Assembly: GCA_965649765.1 (NCBI GenBank)
Contig: OZ287759.1
Span: 11,966,001 to 12,030,000 of the forward strand
Source: Bispira polyomma
Taxonomy: Eukaryota
DNA: 64,000 nucleotides
Direction of reading: 5' to 3'
A program made the position numbers and the translations under genes. The notes beneath the pieces are model-generated. The model did no database searches. It worked only from the letters and a program-made list of their open reading frames with translations, and had not been told where the DNA came from. Positions 16,653-52,882 of the stretch are shown in pieces (within the stretch, counting starts at the first letter, position 1; every line of letters begins with the position of its first letter).

Positions 16653-16683
<31 letters not shown>

Positions 16684-21870: not shown

Positions 21871-24800
21871 ATGCAGCAGTGCCGCAAGATTTTATATGGT
21901 AAATTTGTTTAATATTTTTTAACATTCTCACATAACGCTTATTTGAAATTTGATGCGTTTCTTTTTAACTAACTGACTTTATTGGCGAAATTATTTTAAC
22001 TGTTACATCTGCAATAACATAATACATGTGATGTGTAGAGATTAATAACAAAATATTTTTCATAAATTAACAATAATGTTACAGAGATATATTGTTTAGC
22101 AGTTGCACAACCCAATATGTACATATACTTTTAGTGTTGCTGGTCAGCTTACTGAGAACGGCAGCAGGTTTAGTATTGACAAAAACACACTTTATATAGT
22201 AATTTATATGAGTAATTTCAATGTAATATGTTAAACAGGGTATTAAGAAAATCTCAACAATTTTTGTCATTGTATAAATGTTTTAGAAGTAATGATAATT
22301 AGTTTATTGCCTTTATCTGAGCAATTACAGAACGACATAATGAAGGTGTTGCTTGAAAGTGATCTAAAAGTCTTTTTCAGTGTATTTCAAAGTAAAGTGT
22401 AAAACCATACTTTGTTAATTTTATGCATATGATTTTTTCAAGAAATGTAAATTACAAGCTCTATTTCCTGTCTACATTGCAGTGTCTGTTCTTTCATCAG
22501 AAGGACAAAGTTTTGCTCTGTCATTTTCCCAGGTCCGGTCAGATTTTAATGAAGGGGATTGTGTAGTATACATCAATGCTAAACAGGACACCAATGTCAC
22601 TATCAACGAGCCTGACGGCTTATCTTACACATATGAAATCTTTGCCAATCAGACCTTCAGAAAATATTACTCCTACCCCATAAGAGTGACTGAAGGAGTG
22701 GAAAACAAAGGCATCTTGATAGATGCTGCTGGCAATATCACCGTGATGCTCTCAAACACCAGAATTGATGCCAACATGGATGCCATATTGGCTCTTCCAT
22801 TGCATACAGACACTCAAGAGTACACCATAGTTTCCTATCCATCCACCAATGATCTTACCTGTGTGTCAAATGCTACCTGCAGTTTCTATTCTGTTAATGC
22901 ATATCAGGATGACACATTTGTCCAGGTGTACAAGCTGATTGATGGTGTGCCTCTGTTTTTACAATCATACACTCTGGGTGTGAACGATGTGTTAACTAAC
23001 AGAACCCTGAATACTGAAACTAACAGAAGCTATGACTTTACAGGGTATTATATCACTGCCAACAAACCAGTCTCAGTCACTTCAGGAAATCCCTGTGCTG
23101 ACACCAACCCCAATGAAATTGCAGGGCCTCTGTGGGCCTCTATATCCTCACACCAGTATGTAGGGAGCAGTTACATCTCACACACAATAGACTATAACTC
23201 TTACTCTGACGACACTATTATACGTGTCATGGCTCTCAGTGATGACACAGAAGTCACATTTTCTGAGGTCGTATACACCATCTTATACAGGGGGAAATTC
23301 CGCGATTTTGTCATAAATTCTTATACCAATGTAGTCATTCAGTGTGATAAACCTTGCAGTGCTGCTCAGTATAGTACTCAGCCTGATGCAAACCCTTCTG
23401 GTGGTGCTGTCTTCATGATTCTTCTGGTTCCAACTGAAGCCTACAGCACTAATGTGCTTTTCAACAAGCCAGACACTAACTCTGTAATATTGAGTGACTA
23501 CATGAGCATTGTGTATCTAACAGAAAGCCCAGACAGTTTTCCCCTATTCTATGATGGTGTAGCCTTGACAGGGTGGACAACAGTAACAGCAGCAGGGTAT
23601 TCTACACTTGAAGTACCAGTAACTGGCTTGCGCGAGGTAGCGCACAGTCTGAGTTCTACACAAAATATTGGCTTTTCAGCGTTGATACATGGTCAAGGAC
23701 AAGGGAGTGCAGGCTATGGCTTTATTGCTGGCTTCAGTAAGTAAGTGATGTAAAAGTTAAATTTCTCAAAAAACTTCTAAAACTGTTGTAACAGAATTAA
23801 AAAAAAGTTGCCCATATTACTACATGTACTTGTGAAAGTCAAAATAATTAATACATTCTTGTTACATTACATATTTCTTGTTACATTATTTTCTATTCAT
23901 TTGATATTAAAACTTGTTTTGGCTATGTCAGGTGCATCTGGTGATGATACGCCAGGTTCAAATGTTACCAGACCCAGTCCTCAGTATAGAGTATCCATGA
24001 CAGGAAATTTCGAAAGTGATGATGGCCTAGACTTTAGTCTGGCTTGTACTGACAGGTATAGTGTGGAAATGAATGATGTGGCATCTGACATGGTCATTCA
24101 GGTGAGTATCCTAAGTACAAAACAATTAAATAAGTCTATAACTTTATAACATAACATAAAATATAAATTGAAAAACAACTTTTAACTTTCCCAACAGGTC
24201 AACGGATTCATAGGATCAAGTTTATGTTCGGAATTAACAATAGAAGATATCAATGTGCTATCTGTATCTACTCCATTTGTCACAAATGGAAATCAGGTAA
24301 ATATTTATGGAGAATGTTAAGTCAGATCTTTTCTGTTATTAATAAATTTGTTAAATACTTTTTCTTTTAGATCCTCTTGGACTGTGAGATTTCATATGGT
24401 TTTATATGTCACTGTATGATTGTATATATAGTTATCTATCATTGCAATATTAATTCTTTGTTTTTAGTTGCATTACCTGACATTGACCAAATGGTTTGTG
24501 ATAATACTTTAACACATTAACTAGAAGAAGCTTTGTATTAAATTTTGGTACCATTTTGTTAAAACCAGGGTTCCACTGAACTGAGGTTTATCCTTTCCCC
24601 AAACCTAAACAGACTTACACAACGCCAGGTTGTGAGCTGTGGGGATGAAATAGGTACTTTTCTCCTTGACCATGAAAACTGGAGAAATCCTATCCTACCA
24701 AAACTACCTACCTGTTCTGCGGTGATCTTCAACTCCATGATGTTTAATGACTCTGGACGAGACTGGCTTTGTCTGAATGCACTGGAAGGTAAAACCAACT

Positions 24801-27422
24801 GATCATGTATTAAGAAGAAAACATTAAATTGCTATTTCATTAATTGTGTGAAATAAGCTGACAATTATTTTAAACATATTCCAGGCATTTTTATTTTTGT
24901 TAAACATATGTATAGAAAAAAGTATTTTTATTAGTAATTTATTAATAACATATAATTAACATGTTAACATGTTTTGTTAGAATATTTAAACCAGCCTGTA
25001 GAACACCATCCTGTAGCTACACAACAAACTACTCTAAAGTATGATGTGAGGCACACAGGTTTCTTTATCACAGTGGATGGTAGTGACCTGACCCCAGGCT
25101 GTGTGGGTGACTACAACGATGGCTTTAACCAGAGTACTTTTTCACAGGTAGGTACAATTACCATAGTACCTTGTCATTTGTTGGGACCATGACAAGAGTA
25201 TCTTTTAATAGATTAATACAATGACCAGAGTACCTTGTAATATGTAGGGACCATAAAAAGAGTACCTTGTAATATGTAGGTATAATAATCAGAGTACCTT
25301 TTACTAGGTAGGTATAACGACCAGAGTATCTTCTAATAGGTAGGTACAGTAACCAGAGTACCTTCCCATAGGTAGGTAAAATGACCAGTATGATAATCAT
25401 TAATTAATAATTATTCATTCGATACATTACTGTGAAATTATTATCCCGACCTGGGTTCTTTAACCTGTCACCCAATTGTTCAGTCTCAGCTCCCTCAGGA
25501 AGCATACTAGCGGTGCTGCCACATACAGGGCACAAAGAATAACACCCTTTGGCAGCTAGGTACCCATTTATACACCTGAGTAGGGAGGTAAAATTACTAG
25601 GTAGGTACAATGACCAAAGCATCTTTTAATAGGTTGGTCTATTGATCAGAGTACCTTGTAATAGTTAGATATAATAGATAGGTACAATGACCAAAGTATC
25701 TTTTAATAGGTCCTCTGATCATAATAGTACCTTGTAATAGTTAGGTATAACAATGTATGTTCTAAAAATGATCAGAGTATCTCCTAATATGTTGGTTTAG
25801 TGGCAGGTTGGTGACTAAAGTACCTAACTCACCCGTGTGCCATATTAATGGTATGATCCGATGGTGTCTTTTGATCATAGTTAAACCGTTTAACCACACT
25901 CTTCATGTAGTTTATTGCAAAACAATACATTTGAACTAGCTAGTAGGTATGCGGAAAACTCATAAATTTTGAAAAAATTAAATTTAAAAGTTAAATTGTT
26001 ATGATAACCTTTTTTAAATTCCACTTCTAGATCAAGTCTGTGGAAGATATGATCACAACCGGTACTATGTGTGCAGGTACTGGAGTGATAGTAGAAACTG
26101 TAACTACCACATTATCAGCCCAAGGCAGTCAGGTAGATGTTTTTAACAATGTGTATATGCACAGAAATCTGTTTATCTGAACGTTTTTGATGTTCAGATA
26201 GATAAAAGCAATATTTCAGTGCATCGGCCCAAGTGTGCAATTGGGGAAAAGTCTGGAATTTTAAAGTTTCAACTTCAGTGTTCACTGATAAATGTACAGA
26301 ACATGTATTAAGTAGTTATTCTTAATAAAATAGTTTCATAGGAAATATTGGTTAAATTTTAAATATTTAGTAATTTATGATGGCAACGTTTGCACGGTGT
26401 TCTTAAAATCAAATAACACTGCCTTGATAAATGGAGCGATTGAAATCAGTTTTTATAACACAAATTAACACTTTAGAATAAAAAAACAGGTCTGTATAGA
26501 AAGGGTATTTATTGTTTCTAATGCTTTGTGTTATGAAGTATAACACAGTGTTGGAATGTTTTGGTAAAATGCTTGATTATCATCCTTGAAGGAATTTTTT
26601 TTTTTTTAACTCTGAGACCTTGGTTCGGTGAATCAGGATGAACAGAGGATCAACGGATGTCGGATGCACAGATTTATTCTGACAATATGTCATGCTTATA
26701 GGGTTCTACTTTTAAAATGTTGCTGGGGCCTATTGTACACATGTTATACATCTTACATGGCCCTACTTTACATATGTTCTACATCTTACATGGCTTTATT
26801 TGACACATGTTATACATCTTACATGGCCCTACTTTACACATGTTATACATCTTACATGGCCTACTTTACTCATGTTATACATCTTACATGGCCTTATTTT
26901 ACACATGTTACACCTTACATGGCCTTATTTTACACATGTTATACACCTTACATGGCCTTATTTTACACATGTTATACACCTTACATGGCCTTTTTTTACA
27001 CATGTTATACATCTTACATGGCTCTAATTTACACATGTTATACATCTTGCAGGGCCCTATGTTATACATGTTATACATTTTACAGGGATCTATTTTACAT
27101 GTCCATACATTTTACAGGGCCCTATTATAAACACATTATACATTTTACAGGGCCCTACTTTAAACACATTACTCATCTCACAGGGCTCCACTTTGAACTC
27201 ATTATACATTTACATTATACATTACAGGGTTCTTCCCACCAGAGATACATCATTGAGCTTGATGATGGCAGCCTGGCACAAGAGGTGTTTAGCTGTGCAG
27301 ATGAGGTTTCCGCCTTCTTGTCTCCTCATAGTAGCTGGGTCCAGCCCATCATGCCTTCAGTTAGTGGCTGTCCTATTCTGGAGTTTGACCCACAAATGTT
27401 CACTGAGGACAGCCAAGAGTGA
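21871..27422 (+). CDS. Secreted IgGFc-binding-domain protein, paralogue A (~755 aa)
   Basis: Exons 21871-21898, 22135-22167, 22483-23736, 23932-24101, 24198-24296, 24569-24788, 24981-25147, 26031-26132, 27228-27422; all GT-AG with consistent phases. Signal peptide MQQCRKILYVLLVSLLRTAA. FCGBP-N-like motifs SEG..F, ENKGILI, DFTGYYITANKPVSVTSGNPCA, GYGFIAG. Confidence 0.85.
25125..25790 (+). repeat. 32-bp minisatellite starting in exon 7 and spanning its splice donor (gene A)
   Basis: Unit TGACCAGAGTACCTTGTAATAGGTAGGTACAA; interrupted by a SINE-like fragment at ~25420-25590. Confidence 0.85.
26690..27230 (+). repeat. 33-bp minisatellite ending at the exon-9 acceptor (gene A)
   Basis: Unit CATGTTATACATCTTACA(T/G)GGCCCTACTTTACA. 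Confidence 0.9.
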
Positions 27423-28160
27423 TTGTGTGTGGAATAGTTTTTCTTTGAAAAAAATGCATTGTCATGTAATTGTCAATAAATAAAATCAAGGTATCTGTTG
27501 TTATTCATTTGTTCTTTAATAAAGGCAGCTATATTTACTATTCATAGAAAACGTGTACAATATTAAGTATTTTATTTTGTTCATTTATTATAGTGACCTG
27601 TTACCAATTTTTAAGAAAATACAGTACACAATAACACAATACACCCATCCCATCATTGAGTTTGTATGCCACTCTAAACATTAACTTACACAAGTGTGTG
27701 TGTGAGTATTATATTTAGACTAATATATAAATACAAGGGGAAATCTTATCTAAATACATACTTTATACACAATACGTAATATATTTTACAGTATTATTAT
27801 CTGAATGGTGGTTGTTTGTAGAATAGTTATTCTTTGAAAAAAGCTTTGTGACTTGTAATTGTCAATAAATAAAATCAAGGTATCTCCAACTGTTGTTATT
27901 CATTTGTTCTTTAATAAAGGCAGCTATATTTACTATTCACAGTAAATGTGTACAATAATAAATATTTTATTTTGTTCATTTATTATAGTGACATATTTCT
28001 AATTTTCCGAAAATACAATACACATTAAAATAACACAGCCAGCCACCATTTTGTGTGTGGGTATTATATTTAGACTAATATATAAATACAAGGGTTAATC
28101 TTTTCTAAATACATACTTTATACACAATACATAATATATTTTATAGTACTATTATCTGGA
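27410..28160 (+). repeat. ~390-bp tandem duplication of the stop codon/3' UTR region (gene A)
   Basis: Second unit starts at ~27805 (GGTGGTTGTTTGTAGAATAG); both units contain AATAAA. The same duplication is present in gene B (36905-37650). Confidence 0.85.
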
Positions 28161-28335
28161 CCCATACACACACATATATATGTATGTCTACAAATATTTT
28201 AGAAAGTTTTTGATAGCAAAAAAGATCAGCATGCAGTATTATCAATTGAATACCCTATTTGTATGAATTGTGTGGAAATTTTCTATAATGTTTCAACCAA
28301 AGCATGGTTCCTAACTGCAATATTTGTACAGCATT

Positions 28336-28470
28336 TTATTATTATTATTATTATGCATTTTTAACGCGCTTTTTTGATGCCAGGCATCTTCTAAAGCGCA
28401 ACAGCAGAATCAGTGATCCAATCGTAAATTCCATGGGCATAGCAAGGTCATAAGGGTAGGGGGGTTAACA
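28336..28470 (-). mobile_element. Short L2 3'-tail insertion
   Basis: Reverse complement of GCGCTTTAGAAGATGCCTGGCATC..GCGCGTTAAAAATGCA(TAA)n; the same tail occurs at 37860-37935, 53020-53075 and 55931-56060. Confidence 0.7.
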
Positions 28471-28842
28471 GCTGGTTAATCAGCAAGCAACCAGACTCGG
28501 TATTAATCACCCCGTAGCATCCGGCGGCAAGGGGCGCAACTCCCTTTTATGCTTCACATGGAAACCTGCTTTAGTCACATAATACACATCATCGTTTTGG
28601 GTAATTTACAATTAATTATCTGTAATCATTACACATGGGCTAAATCCTCTTAAGATGGTCTGGTCAAAACGAAAGATTACATTATTAGGTATGACAAACA
28701 TTTGTTTGAGACTTTTTACCCAAGTTATTGGAATTATTACTACAGACTGACTTATATATCACTCTAGACCGAGTATTCTGGCGCCAATGACAGCTTTTTA
28801 AACTGATGTATAGCCGATTGACGACAGTGCAGCTTTCATAAT

Positions 28843-30170
28843 GGGGCTGTCCTGCTATTCCGATAATAGCTTCCGACTGTCACGAATATACAATCGGGAG
28901 CTAATCAGGACAATATTCGGGACAATCGGTGAGTTGTCCCGACTTATCTGGTTACTCGTGCAAATAACCTGTCATGTTAGAAAACCTCTTCATTTAGATG
29001 ACCTGCTGTTGATAGGTCAGACTTAATCGGGATCAATCGTAATATGGTAACATGTATCTGTACCTTAAAACGACCTATCTTTCCTATCGATATGTAAATT
29101 GAGAGCAAATTTTGCTGTTTTGATAAGGATTAATTGCCCCATTAATTCCAATTGGTCTGGGGCACTACAGGTTATTGTCCACTTCACCCGAGTTATCCTG
29201 TCAAATATTAAGGATAGGTCATAAGAATTGGCTTGATGGTGAAGAAAACTCGGGAATGTCATAAGGATAGGTTGTTAACAAGCTCCTGATTCTAAAGACA
29301 ACTCGGGAGAAGTGGCCGATAAATCGTAAGGACGCCTCGACTGTAAAGATAGCTGGGGAAGACTAACGATAGGTTGGCTGGAACAAAAGATAACTTGGGA
29401 GTGAAAGCGATCACTTGGGGGCAAATGGGGGGCAGTAAGACAGTACACTCGTTTTTCACTAGATTCATCCCAGCTTTTAGAGAGGAAACATTGGTAATTT
29501 TTATGATATATGATTATAAACAGGCTTTTATTTTTTGTTATAGAGAATTAGTGAGCTAAGTTAAACAAATATTGCAATTATGCCAGGAAAAAGGAGAGTT
29601 ACAAAGAAAAGGAGGATATAGCCCATACATGAGGACAAAACAGTCATTGATAATGAGTGAGACCCCAGAACTTTTTCATCAGTTGAACCAGCCGACTATG
29701 GATATCACGGATATCCAGGATACCCAGGATACTCAGGATACCCAGCGTATGCAGGATACACCAGACAGTGAGGTGTCAGCTTTCAGTCGCAAACAGAAGA
29801 AGGGGAAAATAAGTACTGTGTTGTTAACCGATGAGCAGGAGGAGGCTGTGGTGGTCTTCCTGAAGGAGTGGCTCTACATGCTCTGGGAGTTCTACTGCTC
29901 AACCAGGAGATTGGATTACACAGAAGTGATAAAGTGGTTCCAGAGGACTATCTTCGGCAAGCTGAGTGTGGGCAAGTCTGGGCAAGCTGTCCCTGAGTTG
30001 ACGGAGCGACAGCAGTGGGTGAAGACCAACTTCCACTTCTTGAAGCCGCATATTAAACATCAGCTCAACAAGTCTGCGGCCTTCAAATCTATCGCATCAG
30101 CTCCTCAGGGGGCTGACCCTCATGAATATTCTGGTGTGTTTGGGGGTGGGGTGGGGGGATACTCGTAATA
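28843..30170 (+). mobile_element. Harbinger/PIF-like remnant with a partial MADF/Myb-like ORF
   Basis: GGGGC start, ATCGGGA-type subterminal repeats, and ORF 29572-30168 with LTDEQEE..VVFLKE...W...FGKL...KSGQA...LTERQQW...FHFLKPHI. Confidence 0.6.
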
Positions 30171-31307: not shown

Positions 31308-34300
31308 ATGCAGCAGTGCCACAAGATTTTATGCGGTAAATTTGTTTAACCTGTTTTAACATTCTTACATATTGCTTTGTTGAAATTTGATTTGTTTCTT
31401 TTTAACTAATTGACTTAATTGGCAAAATTGTTTTAATTGTTACATCTGCAATAACATGATACAAGTGATGTGTAGAGATAAATAACAAAATATTTTTCAT
31501 ACAATATTATTACAAAATATTTTTCAACAATATTATTACAGAACGTATTTATCTTTATTTTTCTTTCTTACAAACAAATGTATATTTATATTTATATATA
31601 CTATGTATATTTACTTTTAGTGTTGCTGGTCAGCTTACTGAGAACGGCAGCAGGTTAAGTATTGACAAAAACACATTTTATATAGAAACGTTCTGAGTAA
31701 TTTCAATGTAATAACTTTGTGTACACTCAGTGAAGAGCTGCTTCTGTCAATGTTAATACAATTAACAAGGTATTAAGAAAATCTCTACAATTTTTGTCAT
31801 TGTATGAATGTTTTCGAAGTAATAATAATTAATTTATTGACTTTATCTGAGAAATTACAGTACAACGTAATTAAGGTGTTGGTGACCTAAAAGTCAGTTA
31901 CTTATTGTATTAAAGTTAAGTTGTATAAGAAATCACATTTCAGCTATTCAATGCCTTTTTTCAGTGTATTTAACAGTAAAGTGTAAAACCATACTTCGTT
32001 GAATATAATAATTTTATGCATATGATTTAATCAAGAAATGTGAAATACAAGTTCTGTTTCCTGTCTACATTGCAGTGTCTGTTCTTTCATCAGAAGGAAA
32101 AAGTTTTGCTCTGTCATTTTCCCAAGCCCGGTCAGATTGGACTGAAGGGGATTGCGTAGTATACATCAATGCTAAACAGGACACCAACGTCACTATCAAC
32201 GAGCCTGACGGCTTTTCTTACACATATGAAATCTTTGCCAATCAGACCTTCAGAAAATATTACTCCCACAGCATAAGAGTGACTGAAGGAGTAGAAAACA
32301 AAGGCATCTTGATAGATGCTTCCGGCGATATCACCGTGATGCTCTCAAACACCAGAAATGATGCCAACATGGATGCCATATTGGCTCTTCCATTGCATAT
32401 AGACACTCAAGAGTACACCATAGTTTCCTATCCATCCACCAATGATATTACCTGTGTGTCAAGTGCTACCTGCAGTTTCTATTCTGTTAATGCATATCAG
32501 GATGACACATTTGTCCAGGTGTACAAGCTGATTGATGGTATGCCTTTGTTTTTACAATCATACACTCTGAATGTGAACGATGTGTTAACTAACAGAACAC
32601 TAAATACTGATGCTGATAGAAGCTATGACTTTACAGGGTATTATATCACTGCCAACAAACCAGTCTCGGTCACTTCAGGAAATCCCTGTGCTGACACCAA
32701 CCCCAATGAAGTTGCAGGGCCTCTGTGGGCCTCCATACCTTCACACCAGTATATAGGGAGCAGCTACATCTCACACACAATAAACTATAACTCTTACTCT
32801 GGTGACACTATTATACGTGTCATGGCTCTCAGTGATGACACAGAAGTCACATTTTCTAGTCTCGCATACCCCATCTCATACAGGGGGCAGTTCCGCGATT
32901 TTGTCCACAATTCTGATACCAATGTAGTCATTCAGTGTGATAAACCTTGCAGTGTTGCTCAGTATAGTACTAATGTTCAGTCAAATCCTTCTGGTGGTGC
33001 TGTTTTCATGATTCTTCTGGTTCCAACTGAAGCCTATGGCACTAATGTGCTTTTCAACAAGCCAGACACTAACTCTGTATCATTGAGTGACTACATGAGC
33101 ATTGTGTATCTAACAGAAAGCCCAGACAGTTCTCCCCTATTCTATGATGGTGTAGCCTTGACAGGGTGGACAACAGTAACAACAGCAGGGTATTCTACCC
33201 TTGAAGTACCAGTTACTGGTTCACGCGAGGTGGCACACAGTCTGAGTTCTACACAAAATATTGGCTTTTCAGCATTGATACATGGTCAAGGAAGTAATGC
33301 TATAGGATATGGTTTTATCGCTGGCTTCAGTAAGTAACACTTTATGTTGTAAGAGTTAAATTTCTTAATAAACTGATGAAATTGTTGTAACAGAATTGAA
33401 AAGAAAAGTTGCCCATATTACTACTTGTGTTTGTGAAAGTCAAAATGCTTAATAAGTTCTATTTCTTGTTACATTATTTTCTATTCATTTGATATTAAAA
33501 CTTGTTTTGGCTGTGTCAGGTGCATCTGGTGATGATACGCCAGGTTCAAATGTTACCAGACCCAGTCCTCAGTACAGAGTATCCATGACAGGAAATTTCG
33601 AAAGTGATGATGGGCTAGACTTTAGTCTGGCTTGTACTGACAGGTATAGTGTGGAAATGAATGATGTGGCATCTGACATGGTCATTCAGGTGAGTATCCT
33701 TTGTACAAAACAAATAAATAAGTCTATAACTTTATGACATAACATAAAATATAAATTGAAAAACAACTTTTAACTTTCCCAACAGGTCAATGGATTCATA
33801 GGATCAAGTTTATGTTCGGAATTAACAACAGAAGATATCAGCGCACTATCTGTATCTACTCCATTTGTCACAAATGGGAATCAGGTAAATATTTATGGAG
33901 AATGTTAAGTCAGATCTTTTCTTTCATAATTAATTTGTAAAAACTGTTTCTTTCGGATCCTCTTGGACTGTGAGATTTCATATGGTTTTATATGTCACTG
34001 TATAATTGTATATATAGTTATCTATCATTGTAATAATAATTCTTTGTTTTTTGTTGCATTACCTGACATTGACCAAATGGTTTGTGATAATTCCTCAATA
34101 CATAACTAGAAGAAGCTTTGTATTAAATTTTGGTACTATTTTGTTATAACCAGGGTTCCACTGAACTAAGGTTTATCCTTTCCCCAAACCTAAACCGACT
34201 TACACAAAGCCAGGTTGTGACCTGTGGTGATGAAATAGGTACTTATCTCCTTGACCATGACAACTGGAGGAATCCTATCCTACCAAAACTACCTACCTGT

Positions 34301-36927
34301 TCTGCGGTGATCTTCAACTCCAGGATGTTTAATGACTCTGGACGAGACTGGCTTTGTCTGAATGCACTGGAAGGTAAAACCAACTGATCATGTATTAAGA
34401 AGAAAACATTAAATTGCTATTTCATTAATTGTGTGAAATAAGCTGACAAATATTTTAAACATATTCCAGGCATTTTTAGTTTTGTTAAGCATATGAATAT
34501 AAAAAAGTATTTTGATTAGTAATTTAATGATAACATATTAATAACATGTTAACATGTTTTGTTAGAATATTTAAACCAGCCTATAGAACGCCATCCTGTA
34601 GCTACACAACAAACTACTCTAAAGTATGATGTGAGGCACACAGGTTTCTTTATCACAGTGGATGGTAGTGACCTGACCCCAGGCTGCGTGGGCGACTACA
34701 ACGATGGCTTTGACCAGAGTACCTTTTCACAGGTAGGTACAATTACCATAGTACCTTGTCATTTGTTGAGGCCATGACAAGAGCATCTTTTAATAGATTA
34801 ATACAATGACCAGAGTGCCTTCTAATATTTAGATATAATCATCAGAGTACCTATTAATACGTAGGTTTAACGACCAGAGTATCTTGTAATAGGTAGTTAC
34901 AGTAACCAGAGTACCTTCCAATAGGTAGGTAAAATGACCAAAACAATAATAACTAATAATTAATTATTCATTCGAGACATTGCTGTGCCATTATTACCCC
35001 ATCCTGGGTTCTTCCACTTGTCAACCAATTGTTCAGTATCAGCTCCATCAGGAAGCATACTAGCAGTGCTGCCACATACAGGGCACAAAAACTAACACTC
35101 ATTACCGGCCAGGTACCCATTTATACACCTGGTTAGGTATTATGACCAGAGTATTTCCTTATATGTTATTTCAGTGTCAGGTTGGTGAATTAAGTACCTA
35201 ACTCACAAGTGTACAAAATTAATGGTATTGTCTTACAACTACATGTAATAGGAATTATAAAAATATCAATGACAGGATTACTATCTTGGCAGTAGGTGCA
35301 ATACTATTTTGTGATGGTATCTTTTGATCAGAGTTGAACAGTTTACCCACCCTCTTCACATAGTTTATTGCAAAACAATACATTTATCTGAACTAGTTGG
35401 TACGTATGCTGAAGACGACTAATTTATTTGGTAAAAATTAAATTTAAAAGTAAAATTGCAATGGTTTCCTTGTTTTAAATTCCATTTCTAGATCAAGTCT
35501 GTTGAAGATATGATCACAGCCGGGACTATGTGTGCAGGTACTGGAGTGATAGTAGAAACTGTAACTACCACATTATCAGCCCAAGGCAGTCAGGTAGATG
35601 TTTTAACAATGTATATATACACAGAAGTCTGTTTATCTGAGCGTCTCTAAAGTTCAGAGAGGTGAAAGCAATATTTCAGTGCATAGGCCCAAGTGTGCAA
35701 ATGGGTAGAAAGTCTGGATTTTAAAGTTTCAACTTCAGTGTTCACTAAGAAATGTAAAGAACATGTATTAAGTAGTTATTCTTAATAAAATGGTTTTATG
35801 GGAAATATTAGTTAAATATTAAATATTCTGTAATTTATGGGTGAAAAGTCCGGGATTTTAAAGTTTCAACTTTAGTGTTTACTGAAATGTAGCGAACATG
35901 TATGAGGTAGTTATTCTTAATTTAATAAAACAGTTTCATAGGAAATATTAGTTAAATATTAAATATCCTGTAATTTTTTTTCAATGATGGCAACGTTTGC
36001 ACGGTGTTCTTAAAATCAATAACACTGCCTTGATAAATGGAGGGATTAAAATCAGCTTTTATAACACAAATTCACACTTTAGACTAAAAAAAAACGGGTG
36101 TACATAGAAAGGGTATTTATTACTTTCTAATGCTTTGTATTATAAAGCTTAACACAGTAAAATGCCTGATTATTGTCCTTGAAGGAATTTTTTTTAAAAA
36201 CTAGGAGACATCTGTCCCATTCTGTAATTAAGAATGAACAGGTCCAATAAACAGACTTCTTTTCTATATATGGCATACCAGTTCTTATAGGGCCCTACTT
36301 TAAACATGTTATACATCTTACAAGGCTCTACTTTTACACATGCCATACATTTTACAGAGTTCTACTTGAAGCACATTGTACATCTTTCAGGGCCCTACTT
36401 TAAACATGTTATACATCTTACAGGGCTCTACTTTTACACATGCCATACATTTTATAGGACTCTACTTTAATCACATTATACATCTTACAGGGTTTTACTT
36501 TAAAAATAATTTTTCATCTTACAGGGCTCTATTTACATGTATTACTTTTTGCAGGGCCCTACTTTAAACACATTATACATTTACAGGGCCCTACTTTAAA
36601 CACATTTTATTTTTCACAGGGCTCTACTTTAAACTCATTATACATTTACATGGCTCTACTTTACATGTATTATACATTTTACAGGGCTCTATTTTACACA
36701 CACTATATATTTTACAGGGGTCTTCCCACCAGAGATACATCTTTGCTCTTGGTGATGGCAGCCTGGCACAAGACGTGTTTAGCTGTGCAGATGAGGTTTC
36801 TGCCTTCTTGTCTCCTCACAGTAACTGGGTCCAGCCCATCATACCTTCAGTTAGTGGCTGTCCAATTCTGGAGTTTGACCCACAAATGTTCACTGAGGAC
36901 AGCCAAAGGTGGTTGTGTGTAGAATAG
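31308..36927 (+). CDS. Secreted IgGFc-binding-domain protein, paralogue B (~760 aa)
   Basis: Exons 31308-31335, 31621-31653, 32076-33329, 33520-33689, 33786-33884, 34154-34373, 34566-34732, 35492-35593, 36718-36927; open frame ending WLCVE*. Confidence 0.87.
36280..36720 (+). repeat. 33-bp minisatellite ending at the exon-9 acceptor (gene B)
   Basis: Units CATTTTACAGGGC(C/T)CTACTTT... Confidence 0.85.
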
Positions 36928-37673
36928 TTATTCTTTGAAAAAAGGTATTTTGACTAGTAATTGTCAATAAATAAAATCAAGGTATCTCTAACTGTTGTTA
37001 TTCATTTGTTCTTTAATAAAGGCAGCTATATTTACTATTCATAGAAAACGTGTACAATATTAAGTATTTTATTTTGTTCATTTATTATAGTGACCTGCTA
37101 CCAATTTTTAAGAAAATACAGTACACAATAACACAATACACCCATCCCATCATTGGGTTTGTATGTCACTCTAAACATTAACTTACACAAGTGTGTGTGT
37201 GAGTATTATATTTAGACTAATATAAATACAAGGGGAAATCTTATCTAAATACATACTTTATACACAATACGTAATATATTTTACAGTATTATTATCTGAA
37301 TGGTGGTTGTTTGTAGAATAGTTATTCTTTGAAAAACAGCTTTGTGACTTGTAATTGTCAATAAATAAAATCAAAGTATCTGTTGTTATTCATTTGTTTT
37401 TTAATAAAGGCAGCTATATTTACTATTCACAGTAAATGTGAACAATATTAAATATTTTATTTTGTTCATTTATTATAGTGACATATTTCTAATTTTCCGA
37501 AAATACAATACACATTAAAATAACACAGCCAGCCACCATTGTGGGTGTGGGTATTGTATTTAGACTAATATATAAATACAAGGTTTAATCTTTTCTAAAT
37601 ACATACTTTATACACAATACATAATATATTTTATAGTACTATTATCTGAACCCATACCCACACATATATATGT

Positions 37674-37935: not shown

Positions 37936-38037
37936 ATATATATATATATATATATAACTGCATGTAAATACATTTATAAGTATAGATAATAGACAAATAA
38001 TAGATTAAAAAGTAATTGCATATAATTATTGTAAAGT

Positions 38038-40181: not shown

Positions 40182-40459
40182 TTAACTTGAATTCTCCACA
40201 AACACAATAGATATAGGTAAAGTCTATAGAAAGACCCTCTCATTCTCCTGGTCATAATTTTTTATAGGCCATAGCCTCACATAGTTCACTTGTGGTTGAG
40301 AAAATTGCATACAATTTACATATTCATAATGCAGTTATCGCCGGTTTATCAACACGAAGGTTGCCACCGAGAGATTTCATGGCATTTTGAAATACTTTGG
40401 GACTATGTGGCAGTGGTTATCGGTGTGACTCAGTGTTAACAGCTGTCAGTTGATGCGTA

Positions 40460-40500
40460 CTTTATAAGGGCCGCCTCACTGACTCAGATACCTGACTCCG
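40460..40500 (+). promoter_or_regulatory. Candidate TATA box/core promoter of paralogue C
   Basis: TTTATAAGG at 40461, ~55 bp upstream of the predicted ATG at 40518. Confidence 0.4.
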
Positions 40501-40517
40501 CATACAGCTGGTTAAGA

Positions 40518-43500: not shown

Positions 43501-46500
43501 AGACAACAGGTAAAGTGTGTGTCACGTCAATGATGAGTAATCTTGTGATAACAACTTGCCTTTAGTGCTATAGAGAGACTCATCGCTGGTTTGACCTCAA
43601 GATAAACTGCATTACAAAACATCATGTACACCGGCTGGCAAATTGTCAGTGTCTTCAAATGAGAAGAAAAACGTCACCTTGAGATAAATCTTCTTATCAG
43701 TGTTTTAGTACCGAGAATTTTAGATACAGAACTCAGTAATTGTGTTGTATTTACAGACTAAATGTTTGATAGCTACACTTCGCAATCCACCATATTTTAG
43801 TAGTACCAAGCACTTTGATACACAGTTTTCATAGTTTTAGATTATTCTCCACCTATTATAAACATTTTTAGACACCCTGTGCAGAGAGGAAAAATGCAAC
43901 CCTCTCACACTGGGATTTTACAAATAACTGCTCTTACCAGGGTAGCCTATCTTTACACACCATGAAGTAAAACAATTGTAGCAGCAACAAACATGTATAG
44001 CATTGGTACTAGTAAGGAAAAAAATATTGACAGATCACTAGCAATCTACAATTAGGCCTTGCATAAATATTCATTGTATCTGTCTGTTTCCTTGCTTCCT
44101 ATTTATAGCTGATAGTTAACAGTTTTAAATGTATTATTAAATGAGAAATTGTTACGGACGTATTAATGGTACACAGCTGTGATACACAATATATGTACAT
44201 AAGCATTAAAGGTAGTCGTCATAAAAATGAGTTGTGTAACATAATTACTGAAAGCAGTCGCACATCAGCACTTGCATCAACAAGCATTCTTTTAGTTGAT
44301 TTTTTGAATTGGGATATTTAACATCCACTCTAGTACCTGTTTAGGTTATATTGGGACGGGTAGTTGAAAACGCTGGAGGAAACACTGCATACAGTTGATT
44401 AAGGTTTTGCACTGAAACCAGCGGCCCGCAGTAAGGGTGATGAGTAATCTTGTGATAAGAACTTGCCTTTAGTGCTATAGAGAGACTCATCGCTGGTTTG
44501 ACCTCAAGATAAACTGCATTACAAAACATCACGTACACCGGCTGGCAAATTGTCAGTGTCTTCAAATGAGAAGAAAAACGTCAACTTGAGATAAATCTTC
44601 TTATCAGAGTTTTAGTACCGAGAATTTCCCACACAGGCATCGACAGGATTCGAACTCACGCCGCCCAGAGGTGAGAGACCAGTGATTGTGAAGCTCAATG
44701 CTTGCTAACCACTAGGCCACCGCGGCCCCAGCATTCTTTTAGATAAGCTAAGCAATCTCTTGTGCATCTGTTTTATAACGATGAAGTCACCTAACGGCTA
44801 CTTGCATTTAGTAAAAAGTAAAATAAATTTCACATTGCAAATAGATCCATCAAAGCGACAAGCATTCTTACATTGCAAATTTTAAATTGTTAAGTTTAAA
44901 CCAGTAAATTAGATATGTGCCAAGTAAAGCCCCGGTCCCACCGGATTTACGTGGAGTTATGAACGTCCCTTTTGGCCTTGCAATGTGATGCAAAACTCCA
45001 TGCAAATGCCGTCCTAATGTTTGTTTACCTAATTATTTGCATGACCATTGCAAGATGTAGTGTAATAATGATATGTAACTATGTGTGACTGTGCGTAGTA
45101 CACAAATAAACCACGCTGCATCATTTGCGAATTGCCAATTGCCAATTGTTGAACAGTTCAAATTTCTTGCGTACCATCTCTCACGCAAGGTTAAGTACAT
45201 CCATGCTAACTAACTTAATTTTTTACATGAGAACTAACTGTGTTACAGCCACCTCAGAAGGCAAGAGTTTTGTCTTTGCATTTTCTCAAATACGGTCTGA
45301 CTTTCTGGAGGGGGAATGTGTGATCTATATCAATTCTAAGTTGGGCACAAATGCAACACTGACTGATCCTGATGGTGCCAGCCAGATGTTCTCCATACAG
45401 GCCAATGTCACATATAGTACCTCCTATAGTTATACGTACAGGGTAAGTGAAGGGGTACAAACAAAAGGGTTTTTGATAGAAGCGGTTGGTGACGTCTCCG
45501 TGATGCTGTCTAATTACAGAGACGATAACCATCTGGACACCATCCTAGTGCCTCCTGTTACCGTAGATAGCCAGGAGTACACAGTCATCACCTACCCAGC
45601 CAGCAACGACATCACCTGCATCTCTAGTGCCACCTGTGCTTTCTTTACCGTAACCGCCTATCAGGATGACACAGAGGTCAATGTGTACAAAATGGTGGAT
45701 GGCACTTCTCTGCTGCTGCAAACAGAAACCCTGCAACAGCAACAGGTTCTTACCAACCGGACCACAAATATTGCTGGTGATCGAAACTACGACTTTACTG
45801 GTTATTACATCACTGCTAATAATTCTGTGTCAGTAGCTGCCGGTAATCCTTGTGCAGACACTAACCCTCAAGAAGTGGCTAGCCAAATCTGGGCTACCAT
45901 GCCATTAGACCAGCAAGCAGGAACTACGCATATCTCCCACACTTTAAACTACAACGACTATTATGGTCCGACAATTGTCAGAATCATGGCCTTGGCCGAT
46001 AGCACACTAGTGACCTATGGCGGAAGTGAAACTGTGATTAACTACAAAGGAGAGTTCCTAGAGTACACCCTGACATCAGATGAGAGCGATGTATTTGAGT
46101 GTGACAAACCATGCCGGGCCGCTCAGTACAGTACAAACGTTGCAATCAATCCATCAGGCAGCGCCATCTTTATGGTTGTATTAGCACCGACCGACAGCTT
46201 TGGTCATGACGTTGTGTACACAAGACCTGACGTGGGCGGTTCTACTAGTATGGTAGATTATATGAGCATAGTCTACTTGACTGAGACACCAGAGGACTCA
46301 CCAGTGTATAATGATGGGGTTGCACTCACGGGGTGGACAGTATACGCAGGGCAGGGATTCTCAAGTGTAGAACTAGAGATTTCTGGTTCGAGAGAAGTCT
46401 TTCATACCCTAACAACCGCTTCAAGCAACCCTGGCTTTTCTGCACTTATACATGGCCAGGCCAATGAAGGCAGAGGGTTTGGTTTTATTGCTGGCTTTGG

Positions 46501-49500
46501 TAAGTGAAAAAGACTAAACTTGTTCAGTAATCACGATACTCAGAATATGCAAATATAGTCTAGTTTAACATTAACAATAAAAATTGACAGCACACAGTAT
46601 CTTGTCAGTATATTAATGTAGGAATGCTATCATGCTATAGGTACTTCTGGGGATGATTCTCCAGCACCGATCAGGCCTAACCCCCAGTACAGGATTGCAA
46701 TGACTGGAGATTTCCACAGTGCTGATGGTATGGACTTTACACTCACCTGTACAGACAACTACAGTACAGAAATGAATGACGTGGCGGCATCCATGATTAT
46801 AAAGGTGGGTGTATCTGAAAGCATTCCATTTCAAATGACTGCTATTGCACGGTATATTTATATGTATATATCTAGCATTTGATTCATATTGTAAGGTGAT
46901 TTAAATGTTTAGCCAGGTAAATGAATGTATGGGCTATACACTGAGGAATATGCTGCATTTTCTGGTTTTACATTGTAATGTGAGGACATTGCAATCTGTA
47001 TATTGCCAGTGTGTCACTCCTTTTATTCCGGCATCATCTTAGATACGACCACCTACCGGAATAGGACATTACAATACTTGAATACGATAATGATAGATGT
47101 GCTTTATAATTCACTTTAATAGAGATTAACCGTTACAAAAGTTAGCTTAGATTAGATGACACAATGAGTAATTTTAGGAGGGTTCTTGTATATATTTTAA
47201 GATTGGAGGGGGTTCTTGTTTTTATTTCGGTCAATGATGTCACCTATTACACAATGTGCAGTGCTATGAATTAGGTTTTTGTTTACATTAAGGCCAATGG
47301 TGTCACACCTTACACACTGTAATACTGTAATTCTATGAGAAAGGGGCTGTTTTCATTAAGGCCAATAATACCACTGCTTACACACTGTGCAATGCTAAGA
47401 ATTGGGTTCTTGTTACTCTTTATGCCAATGGTGTCACTCCACACTGTGTAATGCTCTATATTGGGTTCTTGTTTGCATTAAGGTCAATGGTGTCACTCCT
47501 TCCACACTGTGTAGGGGGTCGCAGTGGCCTAGTGGTTAGCAAGCATTGCTCTACACAATCACTGGTCTCTCATCTCTGGGTGGCGTGAGTTCGAATCCGG
47601 TTGATGCCTTTGTGGGACAGGTGGTAGTTCCTTACTGTGGGCCGCTGGTTTCAATGCAGAACCTTGATCAACTGTATGCAGCGTTTCCTCCAGCATTTCC
47701 AACTACCCATCCAAATATAACCTAAACAGGTACTAGAGTGGACGTTAAATATCCAAATTCAAATTCCACACTGTGTAATGCTCTATATTGGGTTTTTGTT
47801 TACATTTATGTCAATGGTGTCACTCCTTACACACTGTGTAATGCTGTGGGGGGTTCTTGTTTATCTTTAGGTCAATGGATTGATTGGCTCTTCCCTCTGC
47901 AGCACACATACCACAAGTCAGATTCAGCTTCTGACAGTGTCAACTCCATTTGTGACTAATGGAAACCAGGTAACATGACACGGCTGTGTCCGTTATTCTC
48001 ATTGGCTGAAAGCCTCGGTAAAAATAACTGTATACACATAGAAAGAAATTTCGTCTGCAGTGTATTGCTGCCCAGTGGATATAGTTCCTTCAATAACGTA
48101 ATTTTGCAGTAAAAAAGCTTGAATCAGGTAATAATTTTATTTTGTCATATTGGAATAGGAAGAACACATTCCAAAACCTGATACAAGGTAAATTTTGAGT
48201 TGCTGCGCCTCTGATTGTAATAAAAATTACTGCATATCATGCTTTGTTATGTATTATTCCTTAAGTGACGAAACAAACAACTTCTTTTATTATGGGCTAT
48301 ATTCGGATATTTGTCAGAACATTCCATCTCTTAATTAAGGGACACAGTGTTGATTTGAGATGTACTCTGGTCATTTGTTCAGATTCTATTATTCTTTTGT
48401 ATGCTTGTCATCCAGCAACCAAAGTTTTTCTGTGTAAAATACTAAGTTGTTGTCTATGGCTATTGTTTTAAAGTATGAGAGTATATGCCTTTCTGAACAT
48501 TGGTTCAACAAATTTTCATACTTTTGTCAGCCACTCTTTGCTATACAGAGGGGCCGCGGTGGCTTAGTGGTTAGAAACACCTGCTTCTCAATTATTAGCC
48601 TCTTAACAATGTGGATTTAAATCCTGTTTGTTCCTTCTAGTAGGAACATTTGTCAGGTACTTGCTAAGGGTCAGTGGTTTACAGTGGCTTCAGCACTGGT
48701 TTCTTTCACCATAATTAAACTTGGCTGCCTTGATATGACCCAAGTTGTTAAAAGCGACATAAATTTCAATTTTAAATTCCAATTCGATTGGTGTTTGATA
48801 GGGTTCGACTGAGCTGAGATTCATCATGAAGGTCAATCTGACAACTATCACCCAGGACCAAGTGCTGACCTGTGGGGACGAGGTTGGAGTGTATTTACGG
48901 GACCATGCTAACTGGATAAATCCTATTCTCCCTCATCTACCTAACTGCCCAGAAGTCGTCTTTAACTCTCAGATGTTCAATGACTCAGGGCTGGATTGGA
49001 TTTGTTTCAACAGTCTGAAAGGTTGTATGCGCATTCAGATTAATATACTCGGCCCATATATCTACATCCATCTGGTATTCAGAGCACTAATCAACCATTT
49101 CCTGACTGCAACAGTCAACTGCATTAGTTACTGTTATTCCCCTAACTGAAGAGAGAGGCTTAAGGATGACAATTTACCAATTTACCAAGGATCTTTAGCC
49201 AATCACTGGGTCATATCAGACCGCCATTTGAAGTGGTCATGTGAGCCACCAGGCAAACACGTGTACAAATTAACATATAGTGTGAAATGCACAAATACTT
49301 ATACATAATAGCATATATATCTCTGTCTGATCCTTTTTTCAAATGTCCAACGGTAGGTGCATGTTTTTATTACTTTGGTTCTGTTAATACTCTATTACTG
49401 AAATTGTTTATATAATAATGATTGAAGCATTTATATAGTGATAAATTAATTTTAAAAAAAAAACATCATCTAAGGCGCTAAATAAACCACTTATATCATC

Positions 49501-52500
49501 TTCACATTTCCCATAAATGACTCTTCCTATGCTTGTGCTAATGCCCTTGTTAGCAGGTTTTCTGACTACTGCAGCTTCCTACTTTTGAGACTTAAAAAGG
49601 TCTAAATTTAAATATTCAGAACAATGTGTATACAGTCATTTGTTGTGCCAGTCACCGCACCAGTAACAACCCTACATCTCAAAGAGTGTCATTGGTTGCT
49701 TGTTAAGTATCAAATTATTTTCAAGGCTAATGTTACCAAATTTAAAGCTGTTCATTTTTGTTAAGTACTCATAGCAGTAGAACAGATTGTCCATCTCCAA
49801 TATTATGACCTCACAATTAGTCTACCCACAGAAGTCAGTTTACAAAGGTCTATCAGGGTTTACAAATTAAACTGAAAAAGATCCTGACAGACTATCAACC
49901 TGGCGCTGTAAATCAATGACTACTGTACTTCGGAAGATGTTTGATATAAATAGCTATATTACTATTACCCTATTGTTTGTTAGATATTGTAAGATCTGTG
50001 TATATCAGAGCATTAAACACTCAGGCTGTCAGGATTTTCCCCTTTAGCTCAACTGTTAGTGTACTCAGCTCTTACTCTCAGATCCATGACAACCCAGAAT
50101 CGTATCCAAGCAGTAACAAATCTTTTTCAGCAGAACCAAGCTATTTAGGTTGTTTACAATATGTAATTTCAATTACCACAGTATTGTATTTCAGACAAGG
50201 TGCGTGGGGAGATTCCTGCTAGAAAGTTACAGACCACTTTGAAATATACAGTGAGCCATGGTGGTTTGTTCAGCACAGTAGATGGCAGTGTCCTGACCCC
50301 AGGCTGTGTATCTGACTACAACGATGTCTTTGACCAGAGTACCTTCGGCCAGGTAGGTACTATGACCAGAGTAATTTGTGAGAGGTAGGTACCATGATCA
50401 GAGTTGCTTGTAATCGATTATTACAATGGACAGAGTATCAAGTAATAGTTAGGTACAATAACCAGAGTACCTTGTATTAGGTACGTACCATGATCAGAGT
50501 ACCTTGTAATAGGTATGTACAATGACCAGAGTACCTTGTAAGAGGTTAATACAGTGGTCAGAGTATTTTAGAATAGATATTTATAAGGGAATCTGTTAAC
50601 TGTAGATACAGGTGGGGGCAGTACAAAGTTATAGGTTGGTATACTTCCTCCTTTTTTAGATATCAGCGTCGTATAGGATGTTTTCATCATTTGGCGCTCT
50701 ATAAATGTTTCAATTATTATCAGTCAATGAATCGTCTAATAAGTACTTACAATGGCCAGGGAAAGGCATAAAAGATAGATATTCTTCTAAAATTAGGAAG
50801 GTACAGCAACGAAAGATACCTTCCCTTATATTATAATTAACCCTGCATAACATGTGTAGTTCTGAGGAAATACAAATACTGTAATATTAGCTGTTATCCA
50901 TGCCACAAGCACACATTCGACAGTGGGTTCTAGAGCTGAGGGCATACACATGTATTTTATAAGGTCACTACCAACAATATTAACCTACAATACTACTACT
51001 CAGCCCGTTAAATATAGTTTTGTATTAATGTTATAGATGGGTCGGGTGGCTATTTGATGACAGATCATTGTTTCTTCGAATATAACAATGTCTGTTAACT
51101 GCAGAACAGTAAACTGGAATTAAGGAATTAAATCTGACCGTGTTTAGAATTATCAGACCCAGTAGACAGAAATCAAGGGGTTAAATCAGGTAGTATTTAT
51201 TAATAGCATACCTATTAGACAGGAATTAACGGGTTTATACAGGGAGTAGTTAGAAATAGCAGACAGAGTAGACAGTAATGAAGGGATTAAATCAGGCAGC
51301 AGTTAGAAATAGCTGACCTATAAGACAGGAATAGGGGGGTTAAATTAGGCAGCAGTTAGAAATAGCAGACCTATAAGACACGAATGAAGGGGTTAAATCA
51401 GGCAGCAGTTAGGAATAGCCGACATAGTGGACAGGAATAAAGGGGTTAAATCAGGCAGCAGTTAGAAATAGCTGACCTATAAGACAGAAATAAAGGGGTT
51501 AAATCAGGCAGCAGTTTTAAATAACAGACCTATAAGACAGAAATAAAGGGGTTAAATCAGGCAGCAGTTTGGAATAGCAGACCTATAAGACAAAAATAAA
51601 GGGGGTAAATCAGGCAGCAGTTAGAAATAGCTGACCTATAAGACAAAAATAAAGGGGTTAAATCAGGCAGCAGTTATGAATAGCAGACATAGTAGACAGG
51701 AATGAAGGGGTTAAATCAGGCAGCAGTTAGGAATAGCAGACACAGTAGACAGGAATGAAAGGGTTAAATCAGGCAGCAGTTAGAAATAGCTGACCTATAA
51801 GACAGAAATAAAGGGGTTAAATCAGGCAGCAGTTATGAATAGCATAGTAGACAGAAATAAAGGGGTTAAATCAGGTCATAGTAAATAACAGCAGAACCAG
51901 TAGAATGGAAGCCAGGGGTTAAATCAGGCCATAGTTATAAACAGCAGACCAAGTAGAATAGAATACAGGGGTTAAATCAGGCATCAGTTAGAAATAGCAG
52001 ACCTGAATGTCTATTCTAGAAGGCTTCAATGCTTTTTTGTTTGACCAAATCTTCCACTATGATTTTTAGGTTCAAAACGTCAATGGTCAGATCAGTACAG
52101 GTGCCATGTGTGCTGATACAGGAGTAACGATCGAAACAGCCACCGCTTCTCTGACAGCTCAGGGCGGTCAGGTACAGTTTAAGAAATACTAACCCTATAA
52201 TTTTTTGATGTTTTTCCTGATCTTGATATAGTTTAAATGGACATTTTATGTTTCCCCCGGTGCTAACAATCTTTACTGGAAAAGAGGATAAATTTGCCTC
52301 AAGCATCTTACAGTCTCTTGTATAAGACATGCCTCAAAGGATGGCAGCAATTATGCAGGCCAGAGGATTTTGCACAAAATACTGAACTTTTTTAACTTAG
52401 GTTTACTGTCATTCACTTTCTTTAATTAAATGTCCTTGTAGTTAACTATAACTGTGACAACTACAGTGTTGAAGAAAATGTCCAAAATGACGAAAAAATG

Positions 52501-52882
52501 ATGAACCAACATTATATTAATGTATTCCATCCTACAAATTATAAAAAAAAGTATATATATACATATATATCAGAACTATATTCCAACTTTATCACACAAT
52601 TAGGTGGGTATATTTTTCAGTTTTAATAACCCTGTATGTAATTATTTTATTACTGCACCCTTTATGCACACACAGGGCTCCTCACACCAGAATTACTTCT
52701 TACTTCTGGGTGTGGACACTTTGGCCCCGGATGTCTTCTCCTGTGCTGATGAGGTCTCTGCGTTTCTGTCTCCGCACACAAACTGGGTGCTGCCTATCCT
52801 GCCCCCAGTGTCGGGATGTCCAAATGTGGAGTTTGACCCAGAAGTCTTTAATGAGGATGGTCAAGAATGGTTCTGTGTGTGA
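40518..52882 (+). CDS. Secreted IgGFc-binding-domain protein, paralogue C (~755 aa)
   Basis: Exons 40518-40551, 43477-43509, 45249-46499, 46641-46804, 47871-47969, 48802-49021, 50195-50352, 52070-52171, 52676-52882. Same phases as A/B and identical sizes for exons 2, 5, 6 and 8 (33, 99, 220, 102 nt). Signal peptide MNSMGALKLICLILLTVAG; AATAAA at 52929. Exon 1 is the least certain. Confidence 0.83.
41420..42640 (+). mobile_element. Helentron-type non-autonomous element (HINE/DINE-like) with internal ~135-bp repeats
   Basis: 17-bp subterminal inverted repeat GCATATTTGTATCCACC (41420) / GGTGGATACAAATATGC (42427), 3' hairpin, CTAG-TT end, and repeated TTTGACC...CAAGGTCAAA units. Confidence 0.75.
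42463..42621 (+). mobile_element. tRNA-derived SINE (family 2) inserted at the HINE 3' end
   Basis: A box TGGCCGAGTGG, B box GGTTCG..TCC, and an imperfect TSD ..GATGCGCT. Confidence 0.75.
42870..43081 (-). mobile_element. tRNA-derived SINE (family 3)
   Basis: TSD TTAAAAACAGTGA; related plus-strand copies at ~43160-43340 and 48550-48790. Confidence 0.75.
44296..44729 (-). mobile_element. SINE family 1 carrying a 190-bp templated insertion
   Basis: 13-bp TSD AGCATTCTTTTAG; the body matches the 10558 and 47514 copies. Confidence 0.88.
47170..47880 (+). repeat. ~63-bp minisatellite whose last unit contains the exon-5 acceptor (gene C)
   Basis: Units GGGTTCTTGTTT.CATTAAGG(T/C)CAATGGTGTCACTCCTTACACACTGTG...; the last reads GGGTTCTTGTTTATCTTTAG|GTCAATGGA. 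Confidence 0.85.
47514..47763 (+). mobile_element. SINE family 1, full length
   Basis: A box TGGCCTAGTGG, B box GAGTTCGAATCC, 14-bp TSD TTCCACACTGTGTA. Confidence 0.9.
48550..48790 (+). mobile_element. SINE family 3 immediately upstream of gene C exon 6
   Basis: GGGCCGCGGTGGCTTAGTGGTTAG head; body similar to 42870-43081. Confidence 0.7.
50331..50570 (+). repeat. 32-bp minisatellite spanning the exon-7 donor (gene C)
   Basis: Same unit type as in genes A and B (TGACCAGAGTACCTTGTAATAGGTA.GTACAA). Confidence 0.8.
51140..52005. repeat. ~60-bp minisatellite in gene C intron 7
   Basis: Unit AAGGGGTTAAATCAGGCAGCAGTTAGAAATAGC(A/T)GACCTATAAGACAGAAATA, ~14 copies. Confidence 0.92.
52280..52636 (+). 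mobile_element. Tc1/mariner 3' remnant
   Basis: Reads MPQRMAAIMQARGFCTKY* (Tc1 C-terminal signature), with a terminus-like ...ACCCTG|TA. Confidence 0.65.

Follow-up and report, generated by a model that had tools for sequence, protein, structure and literature searches.

A mobile five-cysteine domain family, SEA-like in its predicted fold, paired behind FCGBP-N heads in tandem genes of Bispira polyomma

Six-frame translation and self-comparison of a 64,000-nucleotide stretch of the Bispira polyomma genome (assembly GCA_965649765.1, contig OZ287759.1, positions 11,966,001 to 12,030,000; hereafter the window) revealed three paralogous genes on the same strand, at 21.9-27.4, 31.3-36.9 and 43.9-52.9 kb (Table 1). 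In each of them an FCGBP-N domain is followed by two copies, A and B, of a C-terminal module distinguished by five cysteines (Cys). Judged from sequence comparisons and a predicted fold, this module is an uncatalogued, mobile SEA-like domain family, here paired behind FCGBP-N. We give an even chance to the reading in which the two modules behind the FCGBP-N head form an assembly domain, the spare cysteine of each bonding a second module.

Exons 4-5-6 and 7-8-9 had been described in the initial annotation as homologous triplets with a phase-1 start and phase-0 internal introns, and sequence identity, shuffling and intron phases all agree with this. Modules A (exons 4-6) and B (exons 7-9) share 28-31% identity (BLAST E 1e-20 to 1e-27), and their alignments reach z 27-39 against 500 shuffles; six of the nine pairs were counted in these statistics, the three involving module B of gene 2 being left out. 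Intron phases are 1,1,1,0,0,1,0,0 in genes 1 and 2 and 1,0,0,1,0,0 from exon 3 onward in gene 3, and all introns used are of the GT-AG type (script check of the exon edges read from the sequence). The nine exons claimed for all three genes were recovered in genes 1 and 2, whereas in gene 3 seven were resolved. Likewise, the claim of five cysteines per module stands for five of the six window modules but not for module B of gene 1, where a TGA codon cuts off the fifth.

The module is found far beyond this locus. A HMMER scan of 1.84 billion representative sequences with a profile of 16 third exons yielded 155 clusters at E<=0.001 (62 at 1e-10), overturning a word-based search with the same profile at longer lengths, which had given 0 of 7992. 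Most of the clusters are exon-sized fragments, and at least one, the simple repeat P0131, is a false match. Among the 30 representatives or relatives inspected there are several complete open reading frames (ORFs), carried by contigs some 1-4 kb long, which we took to be transcripts. The module stands alone behind a signal-like leader in P0065, P0086, P0108, P0113, P0134, P0161 and P0162, follows two CUB domains in P0054 and P0143, CUB in P0141, SRCR in P0070 and four CUB-SRCR-VWD-TIL in P0082, and occurs as tandem modules in P0007; in all these intron-free ORFs it is C-terminal. P0015 and P0050 show the end of one module continuing directly into the next, with no intron between. When a profile was built from 10 intron-free ORFs, each of the six spliced window modules matched it over the full length (E 2e-17 to 2e-21). 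The splice junctions cause no shift in the joint alignment, and profile-profile comparison also links both module halves. The exon triplets are thereby supported independently, though not the junction of exons 3 and 4.

Only one of the 30 representatives carried an organism name: it belongs to the transcriptome of Siedleckia nematoides, which parasitises the gut of a polychaete (PMC5480980; this and the other papers cited are drawn on from excerpts). The copy is probably host RNA, and the range of the module is likely annelid-centred. The genome of the window itself gives erythrocruorin-linker matches, which point to annelids, as does the lack of a haemocyanin match in a search whose control was silent too. 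The initial annotation had called the module unrecognised, and the database checks bore this out: no Pfam match to the module in 16 full-length homologues, 16 third exons and eight N-halves, nothing credible in PDB sequence searches, and no usable ESM Atlas match for either of two queries. A description of the domain or of its architecture was not found in the literature covered, most subscription papers lying outside that coverage, and the excerpts of PMC13478489, bioRxiv 10.1101/2025.06.18.660348 and PMC13078365 contain nothing on a five-cysteine domain.

All five cysteines are invariant in the 10 full modules from intron-free ORFs, five of which are complete single-module proteins, most without any other cysteine in the mature chain, and every one of the 23 rows in the joint alignment has them (the fifth of gene 1 sits past its stop). 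Among 85 additional third-exon fragments, all have Cys4 and 83 have Cys3, the two misses looking like intron-derived ends; Cys5 stands in its column in 82, is shifted by one in one and is absent from two. Besides Cys, the invariant columns hold Trp, Pro, Ile and Phe, the first two and the last of these being found near Cys4, and in genes 2 and 3 and many homologues the last cysteine lies 0-3 residues from the C-terminus. Five invariant cysteines in a single-module secreted protein imply that one is unpaired or bonded to another chain.

To trace the module within its own genome, one third exon was used as a query, which gave 25 matches out of 26 candidates; 24 of them make up 12 loci, one match, at C10:14.28 Mb, is weak (E 0.26), and two further queries added no module locus. 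In the fetched DNA each of the 12 loci holds A and then B on one strand, the one at C7:41.97 Mb without visible first exons of A. Such strict pairing brings ten cysteines together, so that the odd one can be satisfied within one chain. Exons upstream on the same strand encode IgGFc_binding at two loci (C10) and Lectin_C at four others, Trefoil at one, Ig with Trefoil at one, and have no assignment at one; a Pfam match was obtained in 13 of the 14 genomic pieces scanned. At C7:51.79 Mb, and only there, a single open frame leads from the end of Lectin_C into module A. Conversely, none of five other single-exon FCGBP-N loci fetched has a module within 14-28 kb downstream. Head and tail thus combine freely, and the module is a mobile C-terminal domain of many architectures, not specific to the FCGBP family. 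The lineage-specific FCGBP-type family proposed initially is thus replaced by a module found behind many heads, in this genome and in others. Upstream of the first FCGBP-N gene on C10 lies a solitary stretch similar to the central part of module B (L015:5026-5139, E 0.29), perhaps a remnant of another copy.

The head itself is ordinary. Exon 3 matches PF17517 (IgGFc_binding) with 104.7, 113.2 and 77.1 bits in genes 1, 2 and 3, respectively (curated cut-off 25.6), confirming the FCGBP-type N-terminal domain noted earlier, which in genes 1 and 2 stands N-terminal behind a hydrophobic leader; a word-based protein search with exon 3 gave only three relatives, all exon-sized. VWD-C8-TIL repeats are absent: the gene models end after module B, and exons 4, 6, 7 and 9 give no such Pfam match. 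Of the hallmarks of gel-forming mucins, neither a PTS domain nor VWD units occur in the three translations. The initial annotation took vWD/TIL, EGF or similar modules to be the normal followers of FCGBP-N; in invertebrates, however, the absence of VWD is the rule and architectures vary (PMC4948705). Oyster has a tandem set of five such genes, and IgGFc-binding proteins are reported from oyster mucus and adhesive contexts (PMC6337334). The window proteins resemble these invertebrate relatives in their N-terminal FCGBP-N, secreted type, tandem expansion and lack of VWD, and differ in their C-terminal partner, a pair of uncatalogued five-cysteine domains not mentioned in the excerpts of the papers cited. 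The same head occurs in vertebrate FCGBP, in frog glue and in amphibian PRITs, which lack VWD and act in skin secretions (PMC11237159); unlike vertebrate FCGBP and PRIT glue proteins, the window proteins have no VWD-C8-TIL, tandem heads or disordered glycosylated repeats. A fourth FCGBP-N paralogue, split over two frames, lies 0.5 kb beyond the window (L037:482-1748), with no module in the 28 kb downstream.

The fold of the module was predicted with AlphaFold2 for the homologue P0065, using a 61-row alignment from which eight misaligned N-half exon rows were left out. The model (predicted local distance difference test, pLDDT, 89.2; predicted template modelling score, pTM, 0.80) has the order E-H-E-E-H-E-E, i.e. 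strand 25-36, helix 42-68, strands 79-91 and 94-105, helix 111-126 and strands 145-147 and 153-159. It points to a beta-alpha-beta-beta-alpha-beta ferredoxin-like sandwich whose last strand is preceded by a Trp/Pro-rich insert, in line with the initial guess of an SEA/ferredoxin-like fold. The third exon folded alone gave a poor model (pLDDT 63), which was not used. Foldseek found no match to the P0065 model at E<=0.001. In a comparison with 48,161 chains a single one reached Z 8 on the whole model, and the top matches were all generic ferredoxin-like folds, the best being a polymerase palm (Z 8.8, root-mean-square deviation, rmsd, 3.6, 92 residues aligned). The best extracellular match came from Foldseek re-scoring, namely thyroglobulin 1267-1444, the hinge before the type 2 repeats (Z 8.3, 144 aligned, 11% identity); with an rmsd of 5.8, ties with enzyme matches and no sequence link found, it is a lead only. 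Derivation of the module from the domain preceding Ephrin_rec_like/thyroglobulin type 2 repeats found no support, the best E being 1.2 against 0.78 for reversed controls in a scan of 3661 peptides that covered the 33 loci only partly. The genome contains at least 151 Ephrin_rec_like (PF07699) matches, with large clusters on C5 and C6 (L056-L085).

Descent from an SEA domain may nevertheless be considered. Three SEA entries are among the best 50 structures, at ranks 22, 32 and 47: Gpr126 (Z 6.6, rmsd 3.8, 105 aligned), a transmembrane protease (Z 6.3, 4.1, 96) and MUC16 (Z 6.2, 3.7, 106). Like SEA domains (PF01390; MUC1, MUC16, Gpr126, Notch NRR), the module would be an extracellular ferredoxin-like sandwich near CUB or mucus domains. 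Unlike them, it is about 140 residues long, has five invariant cysteines and the Trp/Pro-rich insert, and is always C-terminal in soluble proteins, whereas SEA domains are membrane-proximal; nor is there a sequence match, PF01390 being found in none of 16 full-length homologues, 16 third exons and eight N-halves. SEA domains are cleaved in the beta2-beta3 turn, at a GSVVV-type motif or a furin site (PMC6954182), both missing from the corresponding loop of the module. The GS opening exons 6 and 9 does sit in this turn (GSTEL/GSSHQ in the window; present in nine of 16 own-genome third exons, G being the first codon after the acceptor), but was rejected as an autoproteolysis site, since polar residues follow it and it is not conserved in 17 other aligned modules. 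The module could accordingly be read as a divergent SEA domain serving as a protease-resistant spacer or a glycan/matrix anchor, with a fifth cysteine that is incidental, i.e. buried or used for attachment to a mucus protein. The predicted fold, the SEA entries just named and the company that SEA domains keep with CUB and mucin segments (PMC6954182) speak for it; we nonetheless hold it distinctly unlikely, as the Z values of 6.2-6.6 are no better than those of many unrelated ferredoxin folds, the Pfam SEA profile is silent and the five cysteines are near-invariant even in stand-alone proteins with nothing to space, which argues that the odd one matters.

Coordinates of the gene models are given in Table 1. 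Gene 2, with 86% DNA identity to gene 1 over 4.6 kb and a synonymous divergence (dS) of about 0.10, is its recent tandem duplicate. The ratio of nonsynonymous to synonymous divergence (dN/dS) between the two reaches 0.66 in the FCGBP-N head but only 0.24 in module A and 0.34 in module B, and in comparisons of the modules with gene 3 it is 0.09-0.17 where dS was measurable and not saturated. These values indicate purifying selection, with the tail more constrained than the head. Such constraint, the existence of the module as a complete small secreted-type protein and the residues that never vary around Cys4 (Trp, Pro and Phe) would also suit an effector or ligand binder (antimicrobial, metal-binding or free-thiol redox) that the N-terminal domains merely target. 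Conserved polar catalytic residues are lacking and the fold searches bring no particular enzyme to the fore, which makes this very unlikely in our estimate.

Table 1. Predicted genes, exons and domains in the 64,000-nucleotide window
Feature	Position in window	Strand	Remarks
Gene 1	21871..27422	+	755 aa, 16 Cys; predicted gene model, exons per sequence
Gene 1 exons	21871-21898, 22135-22167, 22483-23736, 23932-24101, 24198-24296, 24569-24788, 24981-25147, 26031-26132, 27228-27422	+	
Gene 1 exons 1-2, predicted signal peptide	21871..22167	+	Hydrophobic stretch, residues 6-25
Gene 1 exon 3, IgGFc-binding (FCGBP-N) domain	22483..23736	+	PF17517, E 6.9e-30
Gene 1 module A (exons 4-6)	23932..24788	+	Five Cys
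Gene 1 module B (exons 7-9)	24981..27422	+	Four Cys translated
Gene 1 premature TGA replacing conserved Trp codon	27420-27422	+	TGG in genes 2 and 3
Gene 2	31308..36927	+	760 aa, 18 Cys, intact; predicted gene model
Gene 2 exons	31308-31335, 31621-31653, 32076-33329, 33520-33689, 33786-33884, 34154-34373, 34566-34732, 35492-35593, 36718-36927	+	
Gene 2 module A	33520..34373	+	
Gene 2 module B	34566..36927	+	Five Cys
Gene 3 likely first exon	43894..43941	+	Inferred; start-codon context as in genes 1-2
Gene 3 from exon 3 on	45249..52882	+	733 aa; predicted gene model
Gene 3 exons (seven resolved)	45249-46499, 46641-46804, 47871-47969, 48802-49021, 50195-50352, 52070-52171, 52676-52882	+	
Gene 3 IgGFc-binding (FCGBP-N) domain	45249..46499	+	PF17517, E 1.8e-21
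Gene 3 module A	46641..49021	+	
Gene 3 module B	50195..52882	+	Five Cys; last Cys one residue ahead of stop

The leader of gene 1 reaches its hydropathy maximum (2.04) at residue 7, its assignment being based on hydropathy and not on a signal-peptide predictor. Past residue 30 no hydrophobic window exceeds 1.6 in any of the three translations, which agrees with the earlier statement that transmembrane segments are absent. The proteins have isoelectric points of 4.2-4.4 and 5-9 sequons.

The premature TGA of gene 1 removes the W-x-C C-terminus, so that translation ends before the fifth cysteine of module B. The same letters were found in contigs of all three DNA runs consulted (two samples of one study, possibly the assembly's own source), and an assembly error is thus unsupported. 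With its last cysteine gone, the gene 1 protein would bear a free thiol.

Several repeats accompany the genes. The 3′ end of genes 1 and 2 (last coding bases and about 380 bp) is itself tandemly duplicated (27419-28158 and 36905-37650), and 190-bp direct repeats, 97.9% identical, stand on either side of the likely first exon of gene 3 (43531-43720 and 44438-44627). A 32-bp minisatellite opens intron 7 in all three genes (25126-25388, 34801-34940, 50331-50565); its unit copies the 3′ end of exon 7 together with the donor site (80% mean column identity), resulting in a series of decayed donor look-alikes. Tandem repeats of 33 bp and 63 bp, lying just 5′ of exon 9 in genes 1 and 2 (26729-27166, 36283-36723) and of exon 5 in gene 3 (47211-47511), resemble the acceptor that follows them, and a comparable fourfold repeat of an exon start occurs at C7:41.988 Mb. 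The surroundings contain transposon-derived frames (1-4224, 6314-8453, 9930-11487, 15102-18644 and 55618-60628), which we take to be a near-complete long interspersed element (LINE) with two long ORFs, a broken LINE, fragments of Ty3/Gypsy-type integrase and two DIRS-type elements that carry tyrosine-recombinase frames.

The reading of the tail as an assembly domain builds on the gene structure, homology, mobility, cysteine conservation and selection observed here and on a predicted fold; from there we infer secretion, the disulphides, the dimer and a role in mucus. The three genes would encode likely secreted acidic glycoproteins, in which the FCGBP-N head binds mucus, microbes or surfaces, and diversifies. 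Four cysteines of each module would staple its fold while the fifth bonds to another copy of it. Where a protein has a single module, this bond would join two chains into a disulphide-linked dimer; in A-B proteins it would stay within the chain, the two modules forming a closed, fused dimer. Judged by the predicted topology, it is plausible that Cys1, where helix 1 begins, pairs with Cys4 and that Cys2, where the same helix ends, pairs with Cys3 in helix 2, leaving the terminal Cys5 over; a Cys3-Cys5 pair with a free Cys2 is plausible as well. Exon shuffling at the phase-1 border would have moved the tail onto many binding heads.

The same cysteine arithmetic would permit both odd cysteines of an A-B pair to point outward, so that chains polymerise into strings or gels; we regard this as unlikely. 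In that case single-module proteins would act as dimers or cap the chains, and so would gene 1 with its one free cysteine. The terminal cysteine, within three residues of the C-terminus, may be likened to the tail cysteines of polymeric secreted proteins, i.e. the mucin cystine-knot and the IgM tailpiece, and the partner domains are typical of mucus. On the other hand, the A-B order kept at 12 of 12 loci and the short linker fit an obligate intramolecular pair, and the window proteins have no PTS domain. The oligomerising role initially given to the odd cysteine therefore survives in part: single-module proteins keep five cysteines, but an A-B pair could close within its own chain.

Several points count against the assembly-domain reading. 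A free cysteine might just as well be buried, attach to a different protein or connect chains. The only hint that it is Cys5 comes from two of 85 fragments and gene 1, which lack Cys5 while Cys3 and Cys4 stay, and the fragments may be pseudogenes. The fold was modelled on P0065, which is 28-33% identical to the window exons, and not on the window's own module. Most upstream domains are linked to the A-B pair by genomic adjacency. Gene 3 probably starts at 43894, its exons 1-2 and signal peptide being candidates only.

A wider version of the assembly-domain reading, possible but on the doubtful side, is that spiralians, or at least annelids, possess a covalent assembly domain, a shared disulphide handle on swapped heads with which mucosal recognition proteins are dimerised, polymerised or mixed. 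The heads would be FCGBP-N, C-type lectin, CUB, SRCR, VWD, Ig and trefoil domains, and proteins of the gene 1 type might act as caps. If this is true, the module would be an invertebrate counterpart of mucin- and antibody-polymerising tails, and the 140-residue stand-alone proteins make the idea of a linking handle directly testable. If not, the module can still be defined as a new branch of the extracellular domains with a ferredoxin-like (SEA-like) fold. Uncatalogued as it is, a domain with 155 sequence clusters and at least seven partner domains marks an annotation gap in the mucus and innate-immune proteins of invertebrates.

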